Below are positions 5,535 to 60,841 of a stretch of 64,000 nt of DNA, one piece after another. Both the position numbers and the translations under genes were made by a program. Within the stretch, counting starts at the first letter, position 1. Every line of letters begins with the position of its first letter. The DNA lies in NCBI GenBank assembly GCA_951804945.1, contig OX638157.1, forward strand, positions 33,914,001 to 33,978,000. Reading direction: 5' to 3'. Below the pieces are notes generated by a model. That model was not told the DNA's origin and searched no databases. It worked only from the letters and a program-made list of their open reading frames with translations. The stretch comes from Podarcis cretensis (lineage: Eukaryota).

Positions 5535-6440
5535 AAGCAACTTTGTTTCTGTGAGGGGGAAATGGAAGGAACTGCATAGGTTTAGCATGAAGAAGAGAAG
5601 ACCAGGAGAGGTGAGGGGTGGGGAGAGAGAAAGGCAAAGTTGACTACGCAGCAGCAGCTTGCTGGAGTGAGGTGGTGGAGAAGTCTGTACTGTGTGGGCA
5701 CATCAGCCAAGCCGATCCGGCACTCTCAATAAACCTACGACTGCACCCATTTCTCTCTCCCTCTTGCTAAGCTGTAGCGACCCTGCTGTGGGAAGGTCAG
5801 GTGTATGGCCATGCCTCTCTCTGCTGGCTGCAACAGATTTTTATTTAGTCATTTAGTCACGTCTGACTCTTTGTGACCCCATGTACCAGAGCACACCAGG
5901 CACTCCTGTCTTTCACTGCCTCCCACAGTTTGGTCAGACTCATATTTGTAGCTTCAAGAACACTGTCCAACCATCTCGTCCTCTGTCGTCTCCTTCTCCT
6001 TGTGCCCTCAATCTTTCCCAACGTCAGGGTCTCTTCCAGGGAGTCTTCTCTTCTCATGAGGTGGCCAAAGTATTGGAGCCTCAGCTTCAGGATCTGTCCA
6101 TCCAGCTTCAACAGATATCAATCTTCAAATACCTGAAAGGCTGTCATACCTAGGTGAAGTCAAATGGGTTTTTTGCTGCTGCCTCAGGGGAAAGGACTAG
6201 ATTCAGTGGACTGAATTTACAGGAGGATGGTTTTCAGTTGATTACTAGGAGAAATGGTAAGAGAAGTTCAATGATGGAAGCAGATTACTGAGGGAAGTGG
6301 TGGGCTCTCTTGAAAGGAAAATGCAAATGGAGACTGTGCAGCCATTTGCTGGGAATGCTCTCTAGCTCTGGATTTCCTTCATCTTGCAATGAGATAGACT
6401 AGGAGGACTACTGGATTCCCTCCATTTCTGTGATTCCACA
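5535..6440 (+). mobile_element. Old CR1 3' end, split by later insertions (pieces ~5535-5612 and ~6114-6440)
   Basis: KELHRFSMKKRR at ~5566-5601 resembles CR1 KELGMFSLEKRR; ISIFKYLKGCH at ~6115-6147; CR1-type TTCTGTGATTC tail at ~6426-6436. Confidence 0.65.
5839..6104 (-). mobile_element. Bov-B (RTE) LINE 3' fragment, 5'-truncated
   Basis: Encodes the Bov-B RT C-terminus (GQILKLRLQYFGHLMRREDSLE...RWLDSVLEATNMSL...VHGVTKS). 12-bp TSD GCTGCAACAGAT (5827-38) / GCTTCAACAGAT (6105-16). Confidence 0.92.
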
Positions 6441-13458: not shown

Positions 13459-13969
13459 TTGTTGTTGTTGTTTAGTCGTTTAGTCGTGTCCAACTCTTCA
13501 TGACCCCATGGACCAGAGCACACCAGGCGCTTCTGCTTTCTCTTGCCTCCCACAGTTTGGTCAAACTCATGCTGGTAATTTCGAGAACACTGTCCAACCA
13601 TCTTGTCCTCTGTCGTCCCCTTCTACTTGTGCCCTCCATCTTTCCCAACATCAGGATCTTTTCCAGGGAGTCTTCTCTTCTCATGAGGTATTGGAGCTTC
13701 AGCTTCAGGATCTGTCCTTCCAGTGAGCACTCAGGGCTGATTTCCTTCAGAATGGATAGGTTTGATCTTCTTGCAGTCCATGGGACTCTCAAGAGTCTCC
13801 TCCAGCACCATAATTCAAAAGCATCAATTCTTCAGCGATCAGCCTTCTTTATGGTCCAGCTCTCACTTCCATACATCACTACTGGGAAAACCATAGCTTT
13901 AACTATACGGACCTTTATCGGCAAGGTGATGTCTCTGCTTTTTAAGATGCTGTCTAGGTTTGTCATTGT
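13459..13969 (-). mobile_element. Bov-B (RTE) LINE 3' fragment with (CAA)n tail
   Basis: Translation RVPWTARRSNLSILKEISPECSLEGQILKLKLQY...RWLDSV; (GTT)n tail on +; TSD TCAGTCCCCACT (13447-58) / TCAGTCCCCGCT (13970-81). Confidence 0.95.
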
Positions 13970-16034
13970 TCAGTCCCCGCTACCTATAATTAAATAAGAA
14001 AAAATAGCTGCATGCTGTACATTTATCAAATACTTAGTTTGAACCCTATGCTATGCCAATGGTGTGTAACAGACAGAGCCATGTAGGTGCCTTGAATGCT
14101 AGAAAACTTGAGTATAGGTGATGGCAAGGAGTATTGGTTATATGGATAGCTCACATGCTCAGAGGAACATAGGATGCTACCTTGGACCAACTATCTCAGT
14201 ACTGACAGTGGCTCTCAAACAGGAGTCTTTTCCACTAGAGATGTCAGGAGATCTGTTACCTTTTGCTTACAAAAGCATGTGTTTCACGACTGAACTGCAG
14301 AATATTAATTCTCAAAGTTGTTTTTTTCAAAACAAACAAACAAAACCAAAGCTTTTGATGAAGGAAATAATCTCACTAATGCACATTTAAAATGGCCTTA
14401 CAAAATGTTATATGCAGAGACATTAAAAATTCCCAAAGCAGCTAATAACAAAGTACACAGTTGTTGGCATCCATCTTTCACAGGAGACAATGAAAAAGTC
14501 AAACTATTGAGGAGTTACAGTGCCTTCTGTGGCTGTAGAGACTGATTGGGAGAGAGATGTTTTTTAGTACAGGTGGGGCAGAGGAAGGCATCCAGGTTTG
14601 CTACTAATGGTGCAAATGTCGTTTCTTCTCTCTGTGCTCCTCCCAACGGTTATTCCTTCTCTGGTACTAATCGACATAATGAGAAGACAGTACTAATCAA
14701 TATAATGGGGAGAAAAATCAATGTAAAATACCATGTAATATCAGAACCACAGTGAAAACAATAGAACAATCAAGTACAAGCAGATTAAAAAAAACACAAC
14801 AGATTGGAAGCTAGTTTAAAAAAAAACAAATTAATATTAAAATCCAGAGCTGCAGAACTGCTCAAAATTACTTTTTGTTAGAATGTTGAGGCAATGTAAG
14901 CCATATTTGGAGTATATTTTAAGACATGGCACCTTACCTTAACAGCTTATACTTCACATCCATTTTAAGAAGAAGAAACGAAATGTGGAAGGCATTGAAA
15001 ACTGTTAATATACTAATTCCAGCATGCCCACAGAACCGTATATGAAGTGTGTGTTTATGCTTCCTAGGGCTAGTTACCTAAAAACTCACATGCATTATTG
15101 ATTTATTAATACATTTTATGAAACAGTGCACATCCATCCACATCTACAGTGCACCTCAATATATGTGGGTAGATGGGGGGAGAGGCGGAGGAGAGTTCAC
15201 ATTCCAGTATGCATTAGCATTTATGAATACATTTAAACTGAAATGTGTCATAGCTTCTTCTTCAATACGCATACAATTCATGCCTTACCAGATGAAAACT
15301 AAGAATTTTCTTCGGTATTTAATATTTCAGTTCATCCAGGATCACAGCCTGAGAGGTTTTCCTATTGCATATTTCTAAAGGCTCTTCTTTGCCTTCTCTA
15401 TCTAGTATTTCTCTATGCTGCCAGTAACTCAGTGAACCAAGAATTTGAACTTATGTCTCTCCAGTCTTAAGTCTTACACTCTATCTGCTGCACAACAACA
15501 GATCTCATGGTTAGCGTGTATGCATATAGTCAGCTCTGATCTTGCGGTGTTTGACATCATGCAGCCATCCTTGATTCCTTTCTCGTTCCTTTCCTCATCA
15601 GGCTTCATTTTTCTGCTAATTTGCTTTGTGCTTTTGTGTGTTTCAGGGCTCCCCAAAAAACATATAAAACCATTTCTGCAAAGTGTGGCAACATGCCTAT
15701 TTTTAACTTCACCCTTGTCTTCAGAGCATGAGCCCCAAAGTGGAATTTCCTTCCTGCTCTTCATTTGAACTGTAGCAGGAAATGTACTGTTAAATAACTA
15801 GCATTGTGACAGTGCACATAGGGGTCACGGTAAGAAAAGGCTTCAAATGGCTCTTCACTGCTACATTTAGCTGCTTTTCAAACACTGAATAATGTTGCTA
15901 TAAGGACTGACATTGTATACGTATTCCAGCATCACCAGTTGTCAGCATATCTGTTTTTATTTTGGGAAAGTAGTCTTAAAGAGAATACATAATTTTTCAA
16001 GTGCTCAGCAGTCATCCATAGCCTGCAATGACAA

Positions 16035-37995: not shown

Positions 37996-38131
37996 CAGTG
38001 ATGACCAAACTTGGCCCTCCAGCTGTTTTCGGACTACAATTCCCATCATCCCTGACCACTGGTCCTGTTAGCTAGGGGTGATGGGAATTGTAGTCCCAAA
38101 AAAGCTGGAGGTCCAAGTTTGGCCATCACTG
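37996..38131. mobile_element. Palindromic hAT MITE, 8-bp TSD TCTTATGG
   Basis: CAGTGATGACCAAACTTGG...CCAAGTTTGGCCATCACTG; near-perfect foldback; TSD at 37988-95 and 38132-39. Confidence 0.93.
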
Positions 38132-38460: not shown

Positions 38461-38595
38461 CAGGGGTGGGGAACTTGTGACTGTTCAGATGTTTTAGGAC
38501 TCCAATTTCCATTAGCCACAGCCAGTATGGCTAATGGTCAAGGATGATGGGAGCTCTAGTCCAACCTCTGGAGGGACCCAGGTTCCTAATCTCTG
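38461..38595. mobile_element. Older palindromic hAT MITE (related decayed copies at ~2100, 4570, 24775, 33365, 41310, 57460)
   Basis: CAGGGGTGGGGAAC...GTTCCTAATCTCTG; imperfect TSD TCCTAAAG/TCCTAAGC; shared ACTCCCATC/GATGGGAG-like core. Confidence 0.7.
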
Positions 38596-39216
38596 TCCTA
38601 AGCATTCTGAATCACACTGAACAAATGCCTAGCAATGACGGCTGTGCACACAATCATTTCCCCCCAGCAAGCTCACTGTGGTCCTACAGATAACCAGAGT
38701 AGCTCTTGATACTATAGAGTGCATGGTGTATATGTCTAGGGGGGGGGGCAGATACTAGGTGTTTCTGTTATGTTTTTCTTTATTACCAGAAATTAGAAGT
38801 TTTTGTATGTGTTGGAAAACTAGCCCCCTCGGGAGAGGCTGGCCCCTCTCCCAGGCTCCAGGGGCTTGTTTGCCGGTGATCTACCCTGGCTGGCATCCCA
38901 GCAGTCCAGGGAGATCTTGATAGGCGACACCTCCCTGATGAAAGGTGCACACCCCCTTCCCCCTTGCATACCAGCAGGAGAAAGAAGTTAGTCAGAAAGT
39001 CTATTTCATCTCTACTTTATTTCTGACTGTACAACTGTACAATAACATGTCTGCTCACTCAGTCTTCTCTGAGCAGTTGCTTGTTCGCAGCTGCGTAGTA
39101 CTCATATCCCAACAGTATGTTCCTGCACGTAGGTAGAAACAGTCTCAAGATACATTAAAAGCATGGGCCACAGGAATTTCAGGCTGCTTATAATGTTCAC
39201 CTGCATCACATAGACA

Positions 39217-42991: not shown

Positions 42992-44728
42992 ACATTACCC
43001 TCAGCCAACCATAAATAGAGAGCTCCTTCCATTTTCCATTTAGTCCTTGCCATTTTCTCAATCCTTGCCATTATAAGTGAATCAATCAATCAATCATACA
43101 TTCTCTGCAGTACTTGTATCATTTTAAATACATCCAATAAAACCAGCACAATCTTGGGAGAAGCTCTCATTTAGTGGTTTACTTTATCACATCCTTCTGC
43201 AAAAGAATCTTTCCAAAATGAGGCCTTCCATTTCAGTTTTTGAATTGTAACATTTCAACGAGATTGTCTTTTGTGACTTGTTGTAAGCTGCTTCAGGGAA
43301 TCTGGCCAGGAAGTAATACAGATTTCTATAACCATCCACACAGCCAAGTAAGTAGACAAGCAGGTAAATAAATGAACAAATAATATACCTTAAAAGATGG
43401 CAGCAAAATTGCTATATAATTTTTCCCTGTGCCCCCAACATACATCTGTTAAAAACATACATTAGGCTGCAAGTTGGTGGTCTTCAGGAGGGCATCCCAG
43501 GGACACAAGATTCTTCAGATCTTCCTCTTTGAAGGTGTAGAAAGGGGTCTGTTCTTAGAGAGGGAGGTTTAAATTTGGGACTATGCCAGCCCAAATTTGT
43601 ATATTCTTGTATATTCTTGTAGAAATGGAAACCCCCCCCCCCCACAAGATTCCCATCTTCATAATATCCTAACTTTGATTTGTGTGTGTGTGTGTGTTGA
43701 CCCCTCCTCTCTTCTCATCTCTGCTTCTCTCGCTTAGCACTGTTTATTGAAGCTAACCTAAGCAGTTTTTCTCCAGGGAAAAACCAAAAGGTGTTGATTT
43801 CCTCCTGTTTTTAGGCTGGGTACCTTTCAGCATGCTCATTCCCACCTGCAGGAGCTGTTAGCACTTCAGTGGAAACCATCTCTGTGTGACTGCTTGTCAC
43901 TCTTCAAGGGAGTGCTCTCCTTTTGTTCCCTGCCTTCCCTCTTTTAGATCATTTCCCCCCAGATTTCTCAATATTTAATAAATACATAATCAAGAAAATG
44001 CTTTCATCTATTCATTAGATTTTTGTAATGCCTCTGGAAATGACTTCTCCCTTTGCATAAACTTGTCAGCAAATCTGTTTACATCATTCACAAGGAAAAC
44101 AAAGCCTCTTTTATTTATTTTCCAGCTCAGAAACACTTTATGAGATGGGTTGCACTTTTTTTCATGGATAATAATTTTTTCTGCTTGTATTCACTCTGGT
44201 ACTACAAGCCATGCTGCACCCGGTAGCGAGGAATTCTTTTTTTAGGTGAGAGAAATAGAAGCATGCAGAACCAGATTTTAAATGATTGTATGGCAGGGAC
44301 AGAAAACCTTTTTGGCTCTGTAGGTCAGATCCTTATCCAGTCACAGCCTTGTGCCCCAAATTTAACAGGTGGGCAGAGCTGATAGGTGGTAGAGTAGAAA
44401 GATGCTTTCTGCTTTTCCCCTGGGAGCTTGCTTGAACAGCTGGTGCAGCAGGCTTCATTCCACTGTCAAAGCATGATTGGGAGTGCCTTTTAGGGCTTCC
44501 AAGTACATGTGAATAAATGTATAAGTGTACAGCTCAACTACTTGTGTACACAGGTACACAGATTGTACACCTGTTGAATGTAATGTGTAAAAACCCAAGC
44601 ATGTCTTATAGTCCATGTTCCCAAACCAGATTATTTTGGGGTTTCAAACCATACACAGAGTTCCTGTAGGAGCAGGATTTTCTGCTCAGATCAGTGGAGG
44701 AGGAAGTTCTCAGGCAGAGGCTTGTAAG

Positions 44729-44872
44729 CAGTGCTTTTTTCTGGGGTGACACAGCGGTACGCATACCCCTAAACATTTTGTGAATCTAAGTCTGGCCTCA
44801 TTGAGGGGCAGTATTTCAATATGAGTAGGAAAATGAGAGTTAACCTCAACATTTTTAAAGAAAAAAGCACTG
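44729..44872. mobile_element. hAT MITE, 8-bp TSD CTTGTAAG
   Basis: TIR CAGTGCTTTTTT...AAAAAAGCACTG; TSD at 44721-28 and 44873-80. Confidence 0.93.
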
Positions 44873-44992
44873 CTTGTAAGCATGCTCAAAGCTGGGGGGA
44901 GGATGAGAGGACCAGCATACCTGCCCTGCACTTACCACATGACTACATTTTAATAATAATAATAATAATAATAATAATTTATTATTTATACC

Positions 44993-45031
44993 CCGCCCAT
45001 CTGGCTGGGCCTCCCCAGCCACTCTGGGCGG
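44993..45031 (-). other. L2 3'-UTR stem-loop (putative RT recognition hairpin)
   Basis: CCGCCCA (44993-99) pairs with TGGGCGG (45025-31); TGGCTGGG (45002-09) pairs with CCCAGCCA (45014-21); 4-nt loop; lies between the stop codon and the microsatellite tail. Confidence 0.8.
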
Positions 45032-45063
45032 CTTCCAAAAGAATATTAAAATACTATGATACA

Positions 45064-48000
45064 TCAAACATTAAAAGCATCCCTGAACAGGGCTGCCTTC
45101 AGATGTCTTCTAAAAGTCTGGTAGTTGTTGTTCTCTTTGACATCTGGTGGGAGGGCATTCCACAAGGAGGGCGCCACTACCGAAAAGGCCCTCTGCCTGG
45201 TTCCCTGTAACTTGGCTTCTCGCAGTGAGGGAACCGCCAGAAGGCCCTTGGTGCTGGACCTCAGTGTCCGGGTAGAACGATGGGGGTGGAGACGCTCCTT
45301 CAGGTATACTGGACCGAGGCCGTTTAGGGCTTTAAAGGTCAGCACCAACACTTTGAATTGTGCTCGGAAACATACTGGGAGCCAATGTAGGTCTTTCAAG
45401 ACCGGTGTTATATGGTCTCGGTGGCCGCTCCCTGTCACCAGTCTGGCTGCTGCGTTCTGGATTAGTTGTAGTTTCCGGGTCACCTTCAAAGGTAGCCCCA
45501 CGTAGAGTGCATTGCAGTAATCCAAGCGGGAGATAACCAGAGCATGCACCACTCTGGCGAGGCAGTCCACAGGCAGATAGGGTCTCAGCCTGCGTACCAG
45601 ATGGAGCTGGTACACAGCTGCCCTGGACACGGATTTAACCTGTGCCTCCATGGACAGCTGTGAGTCCAAAATGACTCCCAGGCTGCGCACCTGGTCCTTC
45701 AGGGGCACAGTTACCCCATTCAGGACCAGGGAGTCCTCCACACCTGCCCGCCTCCTGTCCCCCAGAAACAGTACTTCTGTCTTGTCAGGATTCAATCTCA
45801 ATCTGTTAGCCGCCATCCATCCTCCAACCGCCTCCAGACACTCACACAGGACCTTCACCGCCTTCACTGGTTCTGATTTGAAAGAGAGGTAGAGCTGGGT
45901 ATCATCCGCATACTGATGAACACCCAGCCCAAACCCCCTGATGATCTCTCCCAGCGGCTGCATGTAAATGTTGAAAAGCATGGGGGAGAGGACAGAACCC
46001 TGAGGCACCCCACAAGTGAGAGCCCAGGGGTCTGAACACTCATCCCCCACCACCACTTTCTGGACACGGCCCAGGAGGAAGGAGCGGAACCACTGTAGGA
46101 CAGTGCCCCCAGCTCCCAGCCCCTCAAGACGGTCCAGAAGGATGTTATGGTCGATGGTATCAAACGCCGCTGAGAGATCCAGCAGAACTAGGAAACAGCT
46201 CTCACCTTTGTCCCTAGCCCGCCGGAGATCATCAACCAGTGCGACCAAGGCAGTTTCAGTCCCATGATGAGGCCTGAATCCCGACTGGAAGGGATCCAAA
46301 TGGTCCGCTTCTTCCAGGCGTGCCTGGAGTTGTTCAGCAACCACTCGCTCAATCACCTTGCCCAAGAATGGAAGATTTGAGACTGGGCGATAGCTGGCCA
46401 TCGTGGCCGCATCTAAAGATGGTTTTTTAAGAAGTGGTTTGATAACCGCCTCTTTCAGCGGGTCTGGGAAGGCTCCCTCACGGAGGGAAGCATTCACCAC
46501 CCCACGAAGCCCATCGCCCAGTCCTTCCCGGCTAGCTTTTATAAGCCAGGATGGGCAAGGATCAAGGAGATAGGTGGTTGGTTTCACTCGTCCAAGCAGC
46601 CTGTCCACATCCTCGGAGGTAACAGATTGGAATTGATCCCATGCAATTTGACTAGACAGGACTCTAGCACTCTCCCGCCCCGGCCCTGCTCCCACGGTGG
46701 CGTCTACCTCTTCCCGAATCTGAGCGACTTTATCTGCAAAAAACTTTGCAAAATCATTGCAGGAGATCATGTGGCCCGTACTGGGCCCTGATGTAGCAGG
46801 TGGTTCCGCTAAATTGCGGACCACCTGAAAAAGTCTCCTGCTGCTGTTTTCTGCAGATGCAATAGAGGCGGTGAAGAAAGTCTTCTTCGCCGTCGCTACC
46901 GCCACTTGGTAGGCTCGACATTGAGCTCTAACCTGTGTCCGGTCAGCTTCAGAATGAGTTATCCGCCACCGGCGCTCTAGCCGTCTCAACGATTGTTTCA
47001 TTGCCCTCAGATCCGTGGAAAACCACGGGGCTCTCCGGGCTCCATGCAATCGGAGAGGGCGCTTCGGAGCCAAACAGTCAATAGCCCTGGTTAACTCCAC
47101 ATTCCAGCGGGCCACCAGGGAATCAGCTGAAAGGCCATCAACATGGGATAAAGCATCCCCTACCACTCTCTGGAAACCATTTGGATCCATTAAGTGGCGG
47201 GGGCGGACCATCCGAATCGGTCCCACCTCCCTGCAGAGGGGAAGGGTCGCGGAGAAGTCCAGTTGCACCAGGAAGTGATCTGACCATGGCACTTCTTTTG
47301 TTTCACTTTTAGTTAGTGTCAGGTCACCAACATCCGTAGAGGTAAAGACCAGGTCCAAGGCATGTCCGCGGCTATGGGTTGGGCCAAACTTATTCAGGGA
47401 CAGCCCCATGGAGGCCATGCTTTCCATGAAGTCCCGAGCGGCCCCTTGTAAGGTCGTGTCGGCATGGATATTAAAATCCCCTAGGACAACCAAACTAGGT
47501 GTCTCCAGGAGAACATCCGCCACGACCTGAAGCAGCTCGGGCAGGGAATCCTTGGTGCAGCGGGGAGGTCGGTACACCAAAAGGAATCCTGTACTGCCCC
47601 TATTGCCCAACTTCCAGAACATGCACTCAGAGAACTGGGTCTTCCCAATAGGACGCCTGGTGCAAACTAATGACTTCCTAAAAATCACTGCAACCCCCCC
47701 TCCCCGCCCACAAGGCCTGGGTTGCTGTGCGTAAGAGAAACCTGGTGGACAAGCAGCAGCAAGAACAGGCCCGTCCGCTTCATTCAACCAAGTCTCTGTT
47801 ACACATGCCAGGTCAAATCCCCCATCCATGATCAGGTCATGGATGGCAGTGGTCTTATGAATCATTGACCTGGCATTGCACAGCAGCACCTTCAGGTCAT
47901 GAGGGTATCCCTTGCTGATTCTAGTATCCATCTGGTCAGGACCAGACCTGGAGGCAGGGATAGTCCTCAGACAACGACTAAACCTGCCTCCTCTGTAATG

Positions 48001-48096
48001 ACATGGTCTGGTCTTAGCGTAACTCCTCCTCCTACCCGAGATCACTGAGATCGGTTGTCCCAACGCATCCCCCCCTGTGGAACATGCCGCAGCCAT
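45064..48096 (-). CDS. L2-clade LINE ORF: apurinic-like endonuclease + reverse transcriptase (~1010 aa from first ATG)
   Basis: Uninterrupted ORF; the track starts it at TTG 48150, but the first ATG is at 48096 (context AAAATGG). APE motifs: NARS, TETWL, YRPP, GDFNIH, LDLVF, SDHFLV. RT motifs: YRPVSNL, QSGFR, LDLSAAFDTIDH, GVPQGSVLSP, YADDTQLY, RSLGV. L2-type C-terminus: HITPVLKDLHWLPV...LWNALP. Confidence 0.96.
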   Translation of the reverse strand: MAAACSTGGDALGQPISVISGRRRSYAKTRPCHYRGGRFSRCLRTIPASRSGPDQMDTRISKGYPHDLKVLLCNARSMIHKTTAIHDLIMDGGFDLACVTETWLNEADGPVLAAACPPGFSYAQQPRPCGRGGGVAVIFRKSLVCTRRPIGKTQFSECMFWKLGNRGSTGFLLVYRPPRCTKDSLPELLQVVADVLLETPSLVVLGDFNIHADTTLQGAARDFMESMASMGLSLNKFGPTHSRGHALDLVFTSTDVGDLTLTKSETKEVPWSDHFLVQLDFSATLPLCREVGPIRMVRPRHLMDPNGFQRVVGDALSHVDGLSADSLVARWNVELTRAIDCLAPKRPLRLHGARRAPWFSTDLRAMKQSLRRLERRWRITHSEADRTQVRAQCRAYQVAVATAKKTFFTASIASAENSSRRLFQVVRNLAEPPATSGPSTGHMISCNDFAKFFADKVAQIREEVDATVGAGPGRESARVLSSQIAWDQFQSVTSEDVDRLLGRVKPTTYLLDPCPSWLIKASREGLGDGLRGVVNASLREGAFPDPLKEAVIKPLLKKPSLDAATMASYRPVSNLPFLGKVIERVVAEQLQARLEEADHLDPFQSGFRPHHGTETALVALVDDLRRARDKGESCFLVLLDLSAAFDTIDHNILLDRLEGLGAGGTVLQWFRSFLLGRVQKVVVGDECSDPWALTCGVPQGSVLSPMLFNIYMQPLGEIIRGFGLGVHQYADDTQLYLSFKSEPVKAVKVLCECLEAVGGWMAANRLRLNPDKTEVLFLGDRRRAGVEDSLVLNGVTVPLKDQVRSLGVILDSQLSMEAQVKSVSRAAVYQLHLVRRLRPYLPVDCLARVVHALVISRLDYCNALYVGLPLKVTRKLQLIQNAAARLVTGSGHRDHITPVLKDLHWLPVCFRAQFKVLVLTFKALNGLGPVYLKERLHPHRSTRTLRSSTKGLLAVPSLREAKLQGTRQRAFSVVAPSLWNALPPDVKENNNYQTFRRHLKAALFRDAFNV

Positions 48097-48445
48097 TTTG
48101 TTGGCTGGGACCCACTCCCCGGCAGCCCTGACCCCTCCCCTTAAGAACAAAATAAGACCTTAAAACAATGAAAACAAAACAAAAAAGAAACCCCAAAAAA
48201 CAATACAAATAAAAAACTCCAAAAATTACAAATCCATCAAAATCAAAACAAATTCCCAACTAAACATCCATCCCACCCCCACCCCATCCCTGCATATACA
48301 GTAATAATAATGACAATAATAATAATAATAATAAAGAAATAAAAAGGAAAAGGAAAATTTTAAAACATTTTAAAAAGAACTCTGCACCCCTCCGGATCCC
48401 CCTGGGCCGCAGCAGCAGTGACAGCAATCGTCCCTGTGAGGCCTG

Positions 48446-48960
48446 TCAGGCCCCGCCCTAGGCCAGATGGTGAGTGGCAGGAAGGAGCAGGGCCCTCAGA
48501 CACCCACGCAGGAGAGTCCTCCTGGGCAGCAGAGCACAGCAGTCCTTATGGGGCTTCAGGCCCCGCCCCAGGCCAGATGGTGAGTGGCAGAAAGGAGCAG
48601 GGCCCTCAGACACCCACGCAGGAGAGTCCTCCTGGGCAGCAGAGCACAGCTGTCCTTATGGGGCTTCAGGCCCCGCCCCGGGCCAGATGGTGAGTGGCAG
48701 GAAGGAGCAGGGCCCTCAGACACCCACGCAGGAGAGTCCTCCTGGGCAGCAGAGCACAGCAGTCCTTATGGGGCTTCAGGCCCCGCCCCGGGCCAGATGG
48801 TGAGTGGCAGAAAGGAGCAGGGCCCTCAGACACCCACGCAGGAGAGTCCTCCTGGGCAGCAGAGCACAGCAGTCCTTATGGGGCATCAGGCCCCGCCCCG
48901 GGCCAGATGGTGAGTGGCAGGAAGGAGCAGGGCCCTCAGACACCCACGCAGGAGAGTCCT
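48446..48960 (-). repeat. Tandem array of ~4.7 x 110-bp GC-rich monomers at the 5' end of the L2 element
   Basis: Unit starts TCAGGCCCCGCCC at 48446, 48556, 48666, 48776 and 48886; copies differ at only a few positions. Confidence 0.97.
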
Positions 48961-49615
48961 AATATCTCGAGAGGACTAGAATCTTCCTAAGTGGGTTAGT
49001 GCCACATGGTGAAAGGGAAAAAGTGATCCTGAAAAGGCAACTAACAGAAGTAACCAAGTCCAGCTGTAAACACATAAAAACAACAATAACAAGGTATATT
49101 TGTATGCCCCACTCAGGGGGCACTTCACTGCCCCACTTTCATTTTGTCAGCAAACAATCACCACAACACTAGTAGCAATATCAACCAGGTAATAAACACT
49201 AGTGTAAATGCAGTGCTATCATGGCATGATCAAGGAGGGGCCTGTTGCCCAAACATCCACATGAAGTCAAAGGGAAATTAACTCGGGGAGTCAATAGCTG
49301 TGCTGGGTTGGAGTGAAAGTGGGCAAGGTGCTCTTTGGGAGCACTGCCATCCTCTCTACCCTCTCCTGTCCCATCATGTCCCACCCTGACTGCTCTGCTG
49401 CTGGCACCTGGTTGCTTCCCTCCCACAGCTTCCCAGGTAGTGATGTGAAATGAGAATCAGACTCTTTTTGTCCATATTCCTTTTTTTCAAGAAACAGCTA
49501 TTTGGAAGGCTGCACTCCTCAGCAAAGTGCCTGCTGTTGAGGATCCAGCCATGCCAAACACCTTCCTTTACCCGTGGTGCCTCTGGCATGCAGTGGCAGC
49601 ATTTTGCTGTGTAGC

Positions 49616-50008
49616 CAGGGGTGTCTTACCCATAGAGGTTAGTGGCACAGGGCACCAGGGCGCCAAGTTCTGGAGGGCACCAGGGAAGAGGCGGAGGCTG
49701 GATGCAGTGCCTCCCGGCATCAGCTCACCACCCTCGCCCGCCTCCGCCATGCCGCGCTGAAGTAGTGGCGCGCCCAGAGCCTCCATCTGCCGTGGCCACC
49801 GCAGCACGAAATGGCCAGCTGAGCCAGGAGGTGCCGCGTCCAGCCTCTGCCTCTTCCTCGCCAGAGGAGCCACCCTCCAGCTGCTGCCTGCCTCCACCAG
49901 CCCCGCCAGCAGCACCATCCTCCCTAAAAAAAACTCTGGGAAATGGGTGTGTGTGTGTGCCGGAGGGAGCTTGGCACCAGGGCACCAGATATGCTTAAGA
50001 CGGCCCTG
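49616..50008. mobile_element. GC-rich hAT non-autonomous element
   Basis: Imperfect TIR CAGGGGTGTCTTACCCATA / TATGCTTAAGACGGCCCTG; TSD TGTGTAGC (49608-15) / TGTGTAGT (50009-16); subterminal GGCACCAG repeats. Confidence 0.85.
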
Positions 50009-53000
50009 TGTGTAGTGCACAATCCTGGCTAAATGTTTAAGGAAGATATGTAGCAGCCATTGACATCAGCCCTGGTGCACCATTTTCTGATCCCGATGGT
50101 GATGTCACATTGTTTGCCCTATGAGCTTCTGCTGTTGCCTCCTCTGATAGTCATTTGGCACCCTTGCATTGTGGGGCCCTGGAATTCTGTCCAACCCTAA
50201 CAGAGCCATTGAACAAAATAGTGTGCTTGCTTCCCCCCTGCCTGCTCAGAGCTGCAGCTACAGTGAAAGATGCTTCTCCTTCTTGGCCAGTTCTACATCC
50301 TTTGTATATAATGCCAAGGCCCAGCCTGATTAAGGAATCAGGAATTAACTCCAGTTTCCCCCTGGGTTTGCCCCACCCATAAGCTTCGGGGAATTAAATC
50401 AGGCTCATCCAGTTGGTCAGTTATTGCCTGCTCTATAGGACACAAATCACAAGGCAGCTTCTCCATAGATCTAGCTAGAATGTAACTGGAATCAGTTTCC
50501 AGCCTGCCAAAGAAGACTGATGTAAACTGTGTTTCAACAGAAAACGTTTCTCAGTGATGTGCATGTGTGCAATAATGCATTTTTTATTTTAAAAAGTCAT
50601 CCTCAATAAGTGCAGTACACATAGTTTGAAAAAAACACACACCACAACTATCAATTAGGAGGTGATGGGCAAATAAAAGTGCTTCATGATAACCCACTAG
50701 AAGCCAGGGCCTATAGAGGAACAACTAAAGACTTTTTCAATTAGCGTTAAAACATTTAATGTTAATCCTGAGGGTTTAAAATGACTTTAAAAAGTCACTC
50801 CCCAATAGCTTCGAGAGCTTTAAATCAACAATGCAAAATCAACTAGTTACTGCACTTACTAGCTTGGAACAAAACACAGCAGTGATTATATTCCTTTAAT
50901 TGTCCTTAAAGTCATTATTACATATGCAAGTACAATTTTCTGCTCTCCAGAGTCATTCCCTCATTACACTTTGTGATTCACCAAATTACACTATTGTGAA
51001 TAGTGCCTGAAACCAGTGTCCAAATAGTATCAGGGAACTGCTGGGCTCCTTTCGCTGAGGTCAATTTAATTACATTGTGCATGACAGCAACCATGCCATT
51101 TGGGTATTGCCTTTGCCACCAGCAATTGACACCTGAGTGTTAATGAGCTAGTAATTAAGAGCTGGCACAGGCAGGCACATTTTCATGTTGGAGACTGGGA
51201 TCACCATGTGCTGTATCACGTTTGTGCTAACAGCCTTCAGTTATATAGTTCCTGGAATATACAAGGTTTGTGACATATAAACATATTTCATTTGCAAAGC
51301 CTGCTTTTCTGACGGTCAGACTAAACAATTCTGTGCCTCCCATGAGAAATAGAACCATCATAAACATTTTCTGAGCACTGGATTATTTTGCTTGGTTTTG
51401 ATTTTTCTCATCTTTGCATTTTAAAGCTTGTTTAAAGGTTAATGGCTTCTGATGATAATCTACCCCAAAGGCTTAATTAATATTGGATGCCCCCTGTGCC
51501 AGATTCTGCTCAGTGCCAGAAAGAGACCCAGGTCTCGGGTCAAAATAAAATCACTCCACAATTAGACAGAACCAACAGACATCAAACGAGACAGAGTTAA
51601 TGCCCTTTCTCCTTTGCATGATCATGGACAGATGTCTTCTGCTGGGGTTGTACAAGGCCTAAACCAACTGCAAAACAGGCTCAGAGGCTCCTCCCAAAAA
51701 GAATGCAAAAAATAGCTCTCAGAAATGACAGTCAACATCTATTACAGCTCATCAACACATTTCAGAACAGAGGTTCAAGAGCAATCCAAAACTTTCAAAT
51801 TCTATAAAAATGTGAAATAGCTGTTTTGAATGATCCTTACCAATAAGGAGGAGGGATCATTGAGAGCAAAACTAAAACACTAGCACATTTGCAAGGTGGG
51901 GAAACTTCTAGACGGGTCCAGTCCCTACTGCACTAGTTTTCTACCGCTAAGGGAAAATTGTTTTTTTCCAAAAAGAAAGAAATGCATGTCATACTAGGGT
52001 ACTTGCAATCTGAAGTTCTACCTGTCATTCTGATACCTCAAAATCCTACCTCTTCATTCCCACTTTATTCTGTTGCATTCACAAACCAGGCTTTCTAGCA
52101 AGAGTAGGGACTTTCAGGTTTGTCAGACCTCTATTCAGCCCATATGATTCTCCCCAGGCTGCACGCCTTCTTGACCCTGCTCTGCACCCTCCTTCAGTAC
52201 TTTTGCTTTGTGGCAATGTGTCTTTGAGGTGTGATACTGCTGCTTGGTTGCTTGGATGCTGGATGGAAAGATGTAGGTGGTTATAGAAACATTTGATTTT
52301 TGCATGGGTGGGGTGTAGTATACTATGAAAAGCTAAAATTCACATCTATAGATCTGCCTATTCTTGTCTCCAACCACACTGAAAACAATGCCAGTGTAAT
52401 TAGCTTCAACATCTTTTCCATATTCTTATTAAAGAGGAGAAAGAGAACTTACTATTTTCTGCTATATTAATATTTTGTTCTGCTCATAGAAATTGAAGCC
52501 CTTTATATATTATAATGGGGCAGGACTCTCAGATGCAGATATTTAAAACATTTAGGTACCTATATCTACATTCTAGGGCATTCCACAATTAAAACACAAT
52601 AAAGTATAGTGTAATGTACACAGCAGAATAAAAGCAAGACTATACCACATGTTAGAATTATAAATGTAAGGTCACCAGGTTTTGCCTGGTACTGAAAAGA
52701 ACAATATTAGTTCTAGGCAGGTCTCTTTGGGGAGGAAATTCCAAAATTGAAAAGGCCCTTTACTAGCATCCACCCTACTTCTGGAAGAAGCAGCACACAA
52801 AGGAGGATCTCAGCAGGTGATCTGAAAGCAGGTGAGAACAGAAGGCAGACCGGATTACAGTAGTTGGTAGATTTGTAGTAGATTGTCAAGGATTTCATAT
52901 TCTTAATTGTTTAACAATAGTTGACTTGGGGGAAATGATTTCCACTGTCCCTAAATTATACTGCTGAAATGAAGGATTCTTGCGGGTAACAAGGAGGAGA

Positions 53001-59556: not shown

Positions 59557-59653
59557 ATCTAAAGGCAACCCTGTTCAGGGAAGCTTTGAATGACTGATGT
59601 TTTATTGTTTTTTTTAATATTTTGTTGGAAGCTGCCCAGATTGGCTGGGTCAA
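59557..59653 (+). mobile_element. Very short 3' fragment of an L2 related to the 45-kb element, running into the gap
   Basis: LKATLFREALND* compared with LKAALFRDAFNV*; TTGGAAGCTGCCCAGATTGGCTGGG matches the 5' arm of the 3' hairpin. Confidence 0.85.
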
Positions 59654-59812
59654 NNNNNNNNNNNNNNNNNNNNNNNNNNNNNNNNNNNNNNNNNNNNNNN
59701 NNNNNNNNNNNNNNNNNNNNNNNNNNNNNNNNNNNNNNNNNNNNNNNNNNNNNNNNNNNNNNNNNNNNNNNNNNNNNNNNNNNNNNNNNNNNNNNNNNNN
59801 NNNNNNNNNNNN
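59654..59812. other. Assembly gap (N run) covering the L2 and L1 tails
   Basis: Run of N. Confidence 1.
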
Positions 59813-60837
59813 ATACAATACAATATATAAACAATACAACACAACATTAACCGAAACAAAACAAAACAAAAACAATTTAAAAACGTACATTATACCATTT
59901 CAGTAGTCTATCTTTCATACCCTTGTTTCATCGACCTCCTCTCACCTCCCTTTTTGTATTCCACTTCTATTAATTGTTTCAGCAATTCCTTTCCATCTTT
60001 CTCTATTTTCTGTCATATAAATATCTTAACTTATTTTTACCCTTATTTTCCATTAATACTATAATGCTTATTTATGCTTAACTCCTTATAACATTTCAAC
60101 TAAAGCCATAAAATTTCATTCCAACATTTTTCTAACACTCAGTAATTTTACAATATTTCTATTTCTGAAAATAAACTTTAAAACTTTTTCCAGTCTTCTT
60201 CCACCATCTCTTCTCCCTGGTCTCGGATACTGCCAGTCATTTGTCAATTCCAAATAGATTTAATTTTCAACACTCTCTCCTGCAGGCTTGCGTGATCCAA
60301 AATTTCCCCCCTCTTCTCCTGCTTCCAAGGGGGGTTTAATAGTTTTAATCGATGGAAGTTTAATCCTTTGCAGAAGACTTTCCAAGACCTTAGCTTGCAG
60401 CGTCTTTGCTTCAATCTATTTACAAAAGGGGAAGGCGGACTTCCTGTTTAAAACCTTCCCGTTTCGGTGCCAAATTAAGACATTTATAGATCCAATTTTC
60501 TGTTCTACTCACGGGTAGTTGTTTAAAATAGAATTGTCCACAGGAAAAAGTCAGTGCTCTCCGGCAACAGCAATGCGGCTTCACTCCGTGAAAGAAACAA
60601 TCAATTCGAAGCACTGCACTGCTCACCCCACGTTGCTCCGGATCCCCGAAACCGGGTCTCCCCACGTGTAGGGGAGGCGCAAAAGGTGCCAGCCAAATCC
60701 CAGGTTCACAGGCTTCTCCCGCCTGTGATTTTTAGTGGGTCTCCGCCTTTGCCGTGGCGGCCAGACCCTGTTTCCACGGAGTAAATTCCTCCTGATCAGA
60801 GGAATTCCGCCATTGCCAGAGGCGCTAACCCGGAAGT
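59813..60837 (-). mobile_element. Internally deleted L1 (5' UTR joined to the ORF2 C-terminal remnant and 3' UTR)
   Basis: 5' terminus ACTTCCGGGTTAGCGCC...AATGGCGG (ETS and YY1 motifs) with a CpG-rich leader; MTGSIRDQGEEMVEEDWKKF at 60240-60181 resembles the squamate L1 ORF2 end (recognised from memory); A/T-rich 3' UTR runs into the gap. Confidence 0.7.
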
Positions 60838-60841
60838 TTTC

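Follow-up and report, generated by a model that had tools for sequence, protein, structure and literature searches.

We analysed a window of 64,000 nucleotides of Podarcis cretensis DNA (assembly GCA_951804945.1, contig OX638157.1, positions 33,914,001-33,978,000, forward strand), in which an L2-type long interspersed element (LINE) lies on the minus strand. The element combines an apurinic endonuclease (APE) and a reverse transcriptase (RT) in one open reading frame (ORF) and is headed by a tandem array of 110-bp units that may be its own monomeric promoter. The linkage of array and ORF is seen in this one copy. In window positions, as used throughout, the parts of the element from its 3′ tail to its 5′ edge are as follows, with UTR standing for untranslated region and TSD for target-site duplication:

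44951 to 48960, minus strand: L2-type LINE, probably a single insertion, 4,010 bp
44951 to 44978, minus strand: (TTA)n 3′ tail of 9.3 perfect units, its last five bases a possible 3′ TSD copy
44979 to 45063, minus strand: 3′ UTR, containing a stem-loop at 44993-45031 (z -3.75)
45064 to 48096, minus strand: single open ORF of 1,010 amino acids (aa), from Pfam, motifs and Podarcis protein alignments
48097 to 48374 (~280 bp), minus strand: non-repetitive T-rich spacer between ORF and array
48375 to 48445, minus strand: diverged remainder of the ORF-proximal unit, then ~26 bases from a degenerate sixth, by gapped alignment (blastn reaches 48397)
48446 to 48960, minus strand: array of 110-bp units starting at 48960, 48850, 48740, 48630 and 48520, with one GC box each
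48960 to 48964, minus strand: 5-base match to the end of the tail, a candidate 5′ TSD copy or priming microhomology

The stop-to-stop frame runs from 45064 to 48159, and the ATG at 48096, in a strong context (A at -3, G at +4), opens 1,010 aa with no internal stop. A basic N-terminal leader of ~70 aa is followed by the APE endonuclease, the RT and a C-terminal region, and Pfam places Exo_endo_phos on residues 74-256 (E 2.5e-13) and RVT_1 on residues 557-809 (E 2.7e-37). The endonuclease motifs are N74, E101, Y175, GDFN 206 and SDH 272, and the RT motifs are QSGFR 604, DLSAAFD 640, GVPQGS 696 and YADD 729. The best solved-structure relatives of the protein are human L1 ORF2p structures (E 1e-15). 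The first-pass annotation of this DNA had described an uninterrupted APE-RT ORF with catalytic motifs, and the stop-free 1,010 aa and the Pfam matches bear this out. APE endonuclease and RT with catalytic motifs in one ORF are a feature of the L2 clade, as are a 3′ stem-loop and the short tandem-repeat tail that follows it.

Both of these 3′ features had likewise been annotated from the letters of the sequence and are confirmed here. The hairpin at 44993-45031 has a z of -3.75, with an equally stable fold in 0 of 200 shuffles, and a (TTA)9.3 tail follows. By analogy with other L2s, the stem-loop is likely to be the recognition signal of the RT. A second, older L2-type 3′ end lies at 59557-59649, 83% identical over 93 bp to 45014-45104 and cut by an assembly gap at 59654-59812. 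At 70 bp from the L2 tail, a 162-bp sequence with 23-bp inverted ends (44720-44881, 91% complementary) is probably a small miniature inverted-repeat transposable element (MITE).

Among 176 proteins compared with the ORF, the closest is a Podarcis muralis LINE protein, 95% identical over its full length and with the identical first residue (P0001/P0134; UniRef A0A670I7A7, A0A670I5L5); its cluster has 76 members, and the 15 listed include P. muralis and P. raffonei. These Podarcis records are unnamed RT proteins without DNA context, unlike the present copy. Five of the 28 Podarcis proteins with at least 80% identity, all automatic predictions, align from the first residue of the ORF, and short relatives of the N-terminus amounted to 1 of 39 candidates, without an upstream extension. 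In an RT tree of 28 rows, built by a quick method from sequences other than those of Anolis, the ORF joins Podarcis and Varanus rows with full support (10 rows); the fish rows Gouania and Mastacembelus stand beside this lizard group, and no row is named L2. The C-terminal motifs LDYCN and LHWLP, both present in the ORF, are presumably L2 markers. The L2 label was given because of these motifs, the hairpin and tail, and the presence of L2 LINEs in a lacertid. Such elements are reported from Darevskia in the consulted text of PMC7983390. The ORF retains its CpGs (observed/expected ratio, o/e, 0.48 vs 0.22 for the window), which indicates a young copy. The young lizard L2 with an open ORF proposed in the first-pass annotation is thus supported by the Pfam matches, the 95% Podarcis identity and the tree grouping.

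Thirteen residues of the ORF occur in none of the Podarcis relatives that cover them. One is Tyr509, where 12 relatives have mostly Cys and an 18-row alignment has a Cys within a motif. These residues may be species differences; with them in the protein, retrotransposition competence cannot be assumed. A second Podarcis family of L2 type (P0012, P0139, P0144; a cluster of 101) is only ~50% identical to this ORF, which means that two or more divergent families of L2 type with open ORFs exist side by side.

The array at 48446-48960 has a period of 110, 4.7 copies and 97% matches, in agreement with the T-rich spacer and ~4.7 near-identical units that had been annotated. A 17-base probe from the unit has five matches in the window, all inside the array, compared with 0.12 expected on average by chance. 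The four distal units are near-identical, with 1-3 differing bases in 110. In the fifth, ORF-proximal unit, 74 bases match with 2-3 differences, and a gapped alignment follows its diverged remainder to ~48375, making the array five units plus a stub (~26 bases of a sixth). At its 5′ end the array stops abruptly: beyond it, 30 of 110 bases match in register, about chance. The first-pass annotation had the array ending mid-unit at 48960; the abrupt end is indeed there, and whether it falls mid-unit is a matter of where the units are taken to begin. At unit position 40 the five units read C, T, C, T, C in turn, a hint that the array may have grown by two-unit (220-bp) steps. At unit positions 61-62, the two proximal units have changes that are transitions of CpG type. 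The array has a GC content of 67%, with 13 CpG in 515 bp and a CpG o/e of 0.23, compared with 0.22 in the window and 0.48 in the ORF.

A coding role for the array was considered and rejected, as 110 is not a multiple of 3 and every sense frame has five stops. Given these stops, a longest open stretch of 69 codons and no protein match, the array cannot belong to a reading frame. The 69-aa sense frame matched none of 177 protein candidates, and the 109-aa antisense frame found one unrelated repetitive protein among 1.84 billion representatives. Pfam returned no family for two antisense frames, and the array frames had no Atlas match. The monomer pattern had no match in metagenome, viral and prokaryote contigs, where lizard DNA is not expected. 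Among 24 listed rows of sequencing runs, 20 contain the stretch or part of it and 14 contain at least half of its words; the listed runs containing it come from 10 studies and 8 coded organisms, with no RNA run among the listed rows. The shares of these runs do not distinguish array from ORF and carry nothing on their linkage.

Between array and ORF, the spacer is 57% T without a CpG over 48140-48380 and carries an imperfect (TTA)n tract at 48302-48334, which the first-pass annotation had not listed. Residues 2-59 of the P. muralis protein P0005, a predicted N-terminus, match 48286-48104 at 61% (E 7.6e-11); another copy in P. muralis thus shares this sequence, which supports the spacer as part of the family at least from 48286 to the ORF. 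Membership of the array in the insertion is argued from the junction. Bases 48960-48964 equal the last five of the tail, and because these five bases recur exactly at the 5′ edge of the array, the array would lie inside the insertion. The 5-mer occurs at 424 of 63,684 window positions, so the chance of such a match is 0.67% per position, or an estimated ~2-3% with a few bases of slack. The match fits a 5-base TSD with priming on the tail. Beyond the array, the upstream DNA resembles host flank: it carries an old MITE at 49616-50008, and its longest frame has no Pfam match. We consider it very probable that the array arrived together with the element.

Should the array instead be an independent minisatellite or a separate insertion, the L2 would start lower, for example by having inserted through tail homology into the (TTA)n at 48302-48334, which could be a pre-existing microsatellite. 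The tract and the tail have the identical repeat unit, the spacer is tied to the family only in its part downstream of 48286, and the CpG o/e of the array equals the genomic background. A long TSD was not found, the longest word shared by the flanks being 8 bases and off the junctions. Neither a polymerase III B box nor an A box in sense orientation is present in the unit, and Rfam gave nothing better than E 0.44 for it. The lack of a tRNA-type A and B box pair, judged by consensus patterns, sets the unit apart from satellites derived from short interspersed elements (SINEs), although units from a SINE body would escape this comparison. Squamate satellites of that origin, sSat1-3, likewise form short arrays beside retroposon sequence, with units of 70-290 bases, and lacertids do have short arrays of other origin, as far as the consulted text of PMC10702118 describes them. 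The L2-driven SINEs of squamates are said in part of PMC7983390 rarely to have TSDs, which weakens the junction argument. This separate origin has to contend with the 5-base tail match exactly at the 5′ edge of the array and with a unit found nowhere else in the window; with no L2-type hairpin, and no self-match to one, ahead of the internal (TTA)n, the upstream part does not readily pass for an L2-driven SINE. We regard it as improbable.

If the array is part of the element, it may be terminal or internal. No ORF1 was found in the 863 bp ahead of the ORF, where 48160-48960 has no sense frame of at least 80 aa, and for this copy the annotated absence of an ORF1 directly upstream holds. The region 48300-50500 had no convincing match among 182 compared proteins; such blank searches weigh little, because an ORF1 would lie beyond the array. 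The GC-rich 49000-50500 was rejected as an ORF1 region, being mostly MITE and having a 165-aa frame without a Pfam match. The MITE in question, 393 bp at 49616-50008, has 13-bp terminal inverted repeats (11/13) and 8-bp flanking repeats (7/8), and we take it to be of hAT type; its presence explains the GC-rich DNA upstream of the array.

An internal array would mean that full-length members of the family have a further 5′ UTR and an ORF1 upstream, that array and T-rich tract together form a long inter-ORF spacer, and that this copy was 5′-truncated within the array with loss of the real promoter. At 4,010 bp and without an ORF1, the copy is below the 4.8-6.3 kb given for full-length Anolis L2s in the part of PMC5389967 consulted, which makes these 0.8-2.3 kb longer. 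According to the same source they are mostly truncated, with 769 of 11,210 polymorphic L2 insertions (<7%) at full length. All 13 Anolis L2 consensus sequences analysed (L2_AC families, L2 subgroup 1) are classed with a type V ORF1 that has no domain hit, and the ORF1 start is said to be identified in all alignments except two of another subgroup (sections of PMC4120745). Being shorter than Anolis L2s, which are credited with an ORF1, the present copy could be a truncated member of a two-ORF family; a truncation would look just as this copy does. In vertebrate L1, long spacers between the ORFs that are AT-rich or contain repeats have been described (PMC5381506, in part), and the units have no CpG-island character. 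Points the other way are that no protein joining a translation of the array to other sequence was found among the candidates above, a minor point for an ORF1 beyond the array, and that the type V "ORF1s" of Anolis lack any recognised domain, with Anolis absent from the RT tree. A terminal array would predict a 5′ end within it, whereas an internal array should be cut there only now and then. We judge truncation within an internal array unlikely, though a serious competitor.

Distant relatives comprised 80 metagenome loci at 29-50% identity; 31 of them extend as far as the start of the endonuclease, and 10 offer upstream sequence of at least 1.2 kb. None has a comparable array, and these loci are too distant to represent the lizard family. 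The nearest tandem repeats upstream at these loci are L003:1-123 (37 bp x3.3), L017:264-451 (97 bp x1.9) and L025 (45 bp x2.4). At L072:2-787, a zinc-knuckle ORF1 was recognised by eye upstream of the endonuclease.

The L2 of eel, UnaL2, has a single ORF. That L2s without an ORF1 exist, as the first-pass annotation had claimed, is borne out by the consulted part of PMC3880073, in which one-ORF L2s exist and jump. Zebrafish ZfL2-2 and UnaL2 resemble the present copy in their APE-RT ORF, the dependence on their own 3′ UTR and their short-repeat tail (PMC3880073, PMC3747384, each in part). ZfL2-2 and UnaL2 have been shown to jump in cells, whereas this copy is known from sequence alone and was compared with both by description. 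Our literature search found no report of a 5′ monomer array in ZfL2-2 or UnaL2, and PMC3381678, PMC10294476 and PMC7397244 contributed nothing further. It likewise found no account of such an array on a squamate L2, and an earlier description is possible, since Novick 2009, Tollis 2011 and Repbase/Dfam lay outside it; no description of Anolis L2 5′ ends was found in the literature searched, which excluded Novick 2009 and Tollis 2011.

The evidence for a promoter begins with the GC box that had been annotated in the units, where GGGGCGGGGC is present in four and the ORF-proximal unit differs by one base. This 9-base box arises in 0.2% of 1,000 unit shuffles, the motif having been chosen after it was seen. 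It is plausible that the units act as a promoter. In rodent L1 and several other mammalian L1s, tandem 5′ units are well documented, and the 5′ UTRs of lizard L1s are reported without tandem duplications (both from part of PMC5381506), so an array is not the local default. Mouse and rat LINE-1 are alike in having tandem 5′ units, a unique tether of ~250-280 bp, a 5′ end inside the array and a decayed 3′-most unit (PMC5381506; bioRxiv 10.1101/2022.08.06.500894; portions of both). In the lizard copy, units upstream of a unique tether are present, and CpG islands and the YY1 core are absent. Mouse L1 differs in belonging to the L1 clade with an ORF1 and in having units of ~200 bp, CpG islands, a YY1 core and measured additive activity (bioRxiv 10.1101/2022.08.06.500894, in part); the lizard units, at 110 bp, are CpG-poor and have a GC box and no full YY1 site. 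If the same promoter logic does hold in the lizard L2, it would have arisen independently of rodent L1.

Several observations weigh against a promoter role. The 6-base core of the GC box arises in 10.1% of unit shuffles, and three further GC boxes lie in the ORF and 3′ UTR. The unit has no TATA, initiator or full YY1 core GCCATCTT on either strand; only a partial YY1 site, CCATCT, is present, and 6.1% of 1,000 shuffles have it. The units, with a CpG o/e of 0.23, do not qualify as CpG islands, which young mouse L1 monomers generally are. Seven ATGs stand ahead of the start codon, six within the spacer and one within the first unit, so that translation would need leaky scanning or reinitiation. 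With a single copy seen, linkage across the family and variable unit number would be predictions of the promoter reading. This thin motif support would suit an array that is real and terminal and has no promoter role. The two assembly gaps in the window raise the further point that near-identical units could have been collapsed or expanded, giving a misassembled copy number. The units do have distinguishing bases, including the alternating C/T at position 40, and are not simple duplicates of one read. We think it very unlikely that the array lacks a role or that its copy number is an artefact.

The reading we favour, though we hold it with only even confidence, is that of one recent insertion whose array would be the monomeric 5′ end proper to a lacertid L2 family, transcribed from the monomers. 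It draws on the contrast between an abrupt distal 5′ end and graded decay on the ORF side, and on units whose 1-3 differences per 110 bases agree with a young, CpG-retaining ORF. RNA polymerase II would start within or at a monomer, aided by the Sp/KLF-type GC box of each unit, and the T-rich tether would link the array to the single APE-RT ORF in the transcript. The ORF protein would bind the 3′ hairpin and nick an AT-rich site, a 5-base match of the target to the (UUA)n tail would serve for priming, and the RNA would then be copied back into the array. If a copy begins or is cut short within the array, it would retain the downstream units and may stay transcribable, and slippage or unequal exchange could re-grow the array. 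Such re-growth would explain the uniform distal units and the decayed proximal unit. More tentatively, and less probably than not, an active lacertid L2 lineage may have lost ORF1 and independently evolved a modular promoter in the style of rodent L1, relying on GC boxes within CpG-poor units in place of YY1 and CpG islands.

Elsewhere in the window, related copies at 5838-6105 and 13465-13997 are 85% identical over 269 bp. A 173-aa frame at 13476-13997 reads as the antisense of what we take to be the 3′ part of a Bov-B/Sauria SINE. An imperfect palindrome of 136 bp (85%) lies at 37996-38131, with a related copy at 38486-38602. On the minus strand, 60808-60840 resembles the conserved 5′ terminus of lizard clade 1 L1 (as given in part of PMC5381506), with longer spacing and beside an (AAT)13; no long ORF follows, and it is possibly a deleted L1.

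The promoters of vertebrate L2s are poorly described, and L2s are dead in placental mammals (PMC3880073, in part). Were the array internal or unlinked, this would be one more young L2 copy of the ordinary kind. An amniote L2 that has both an open ORF and a monomer array would allow convergence with the mouse L1 promoter to be tested, and would be a candidate for cell assays. If the modular GC-box promoter is real, a heavily 5′-truncating LINE would keep promoters on its shortened copies, and a promoter so poor in CpG would be a poor target for DNA methylation.

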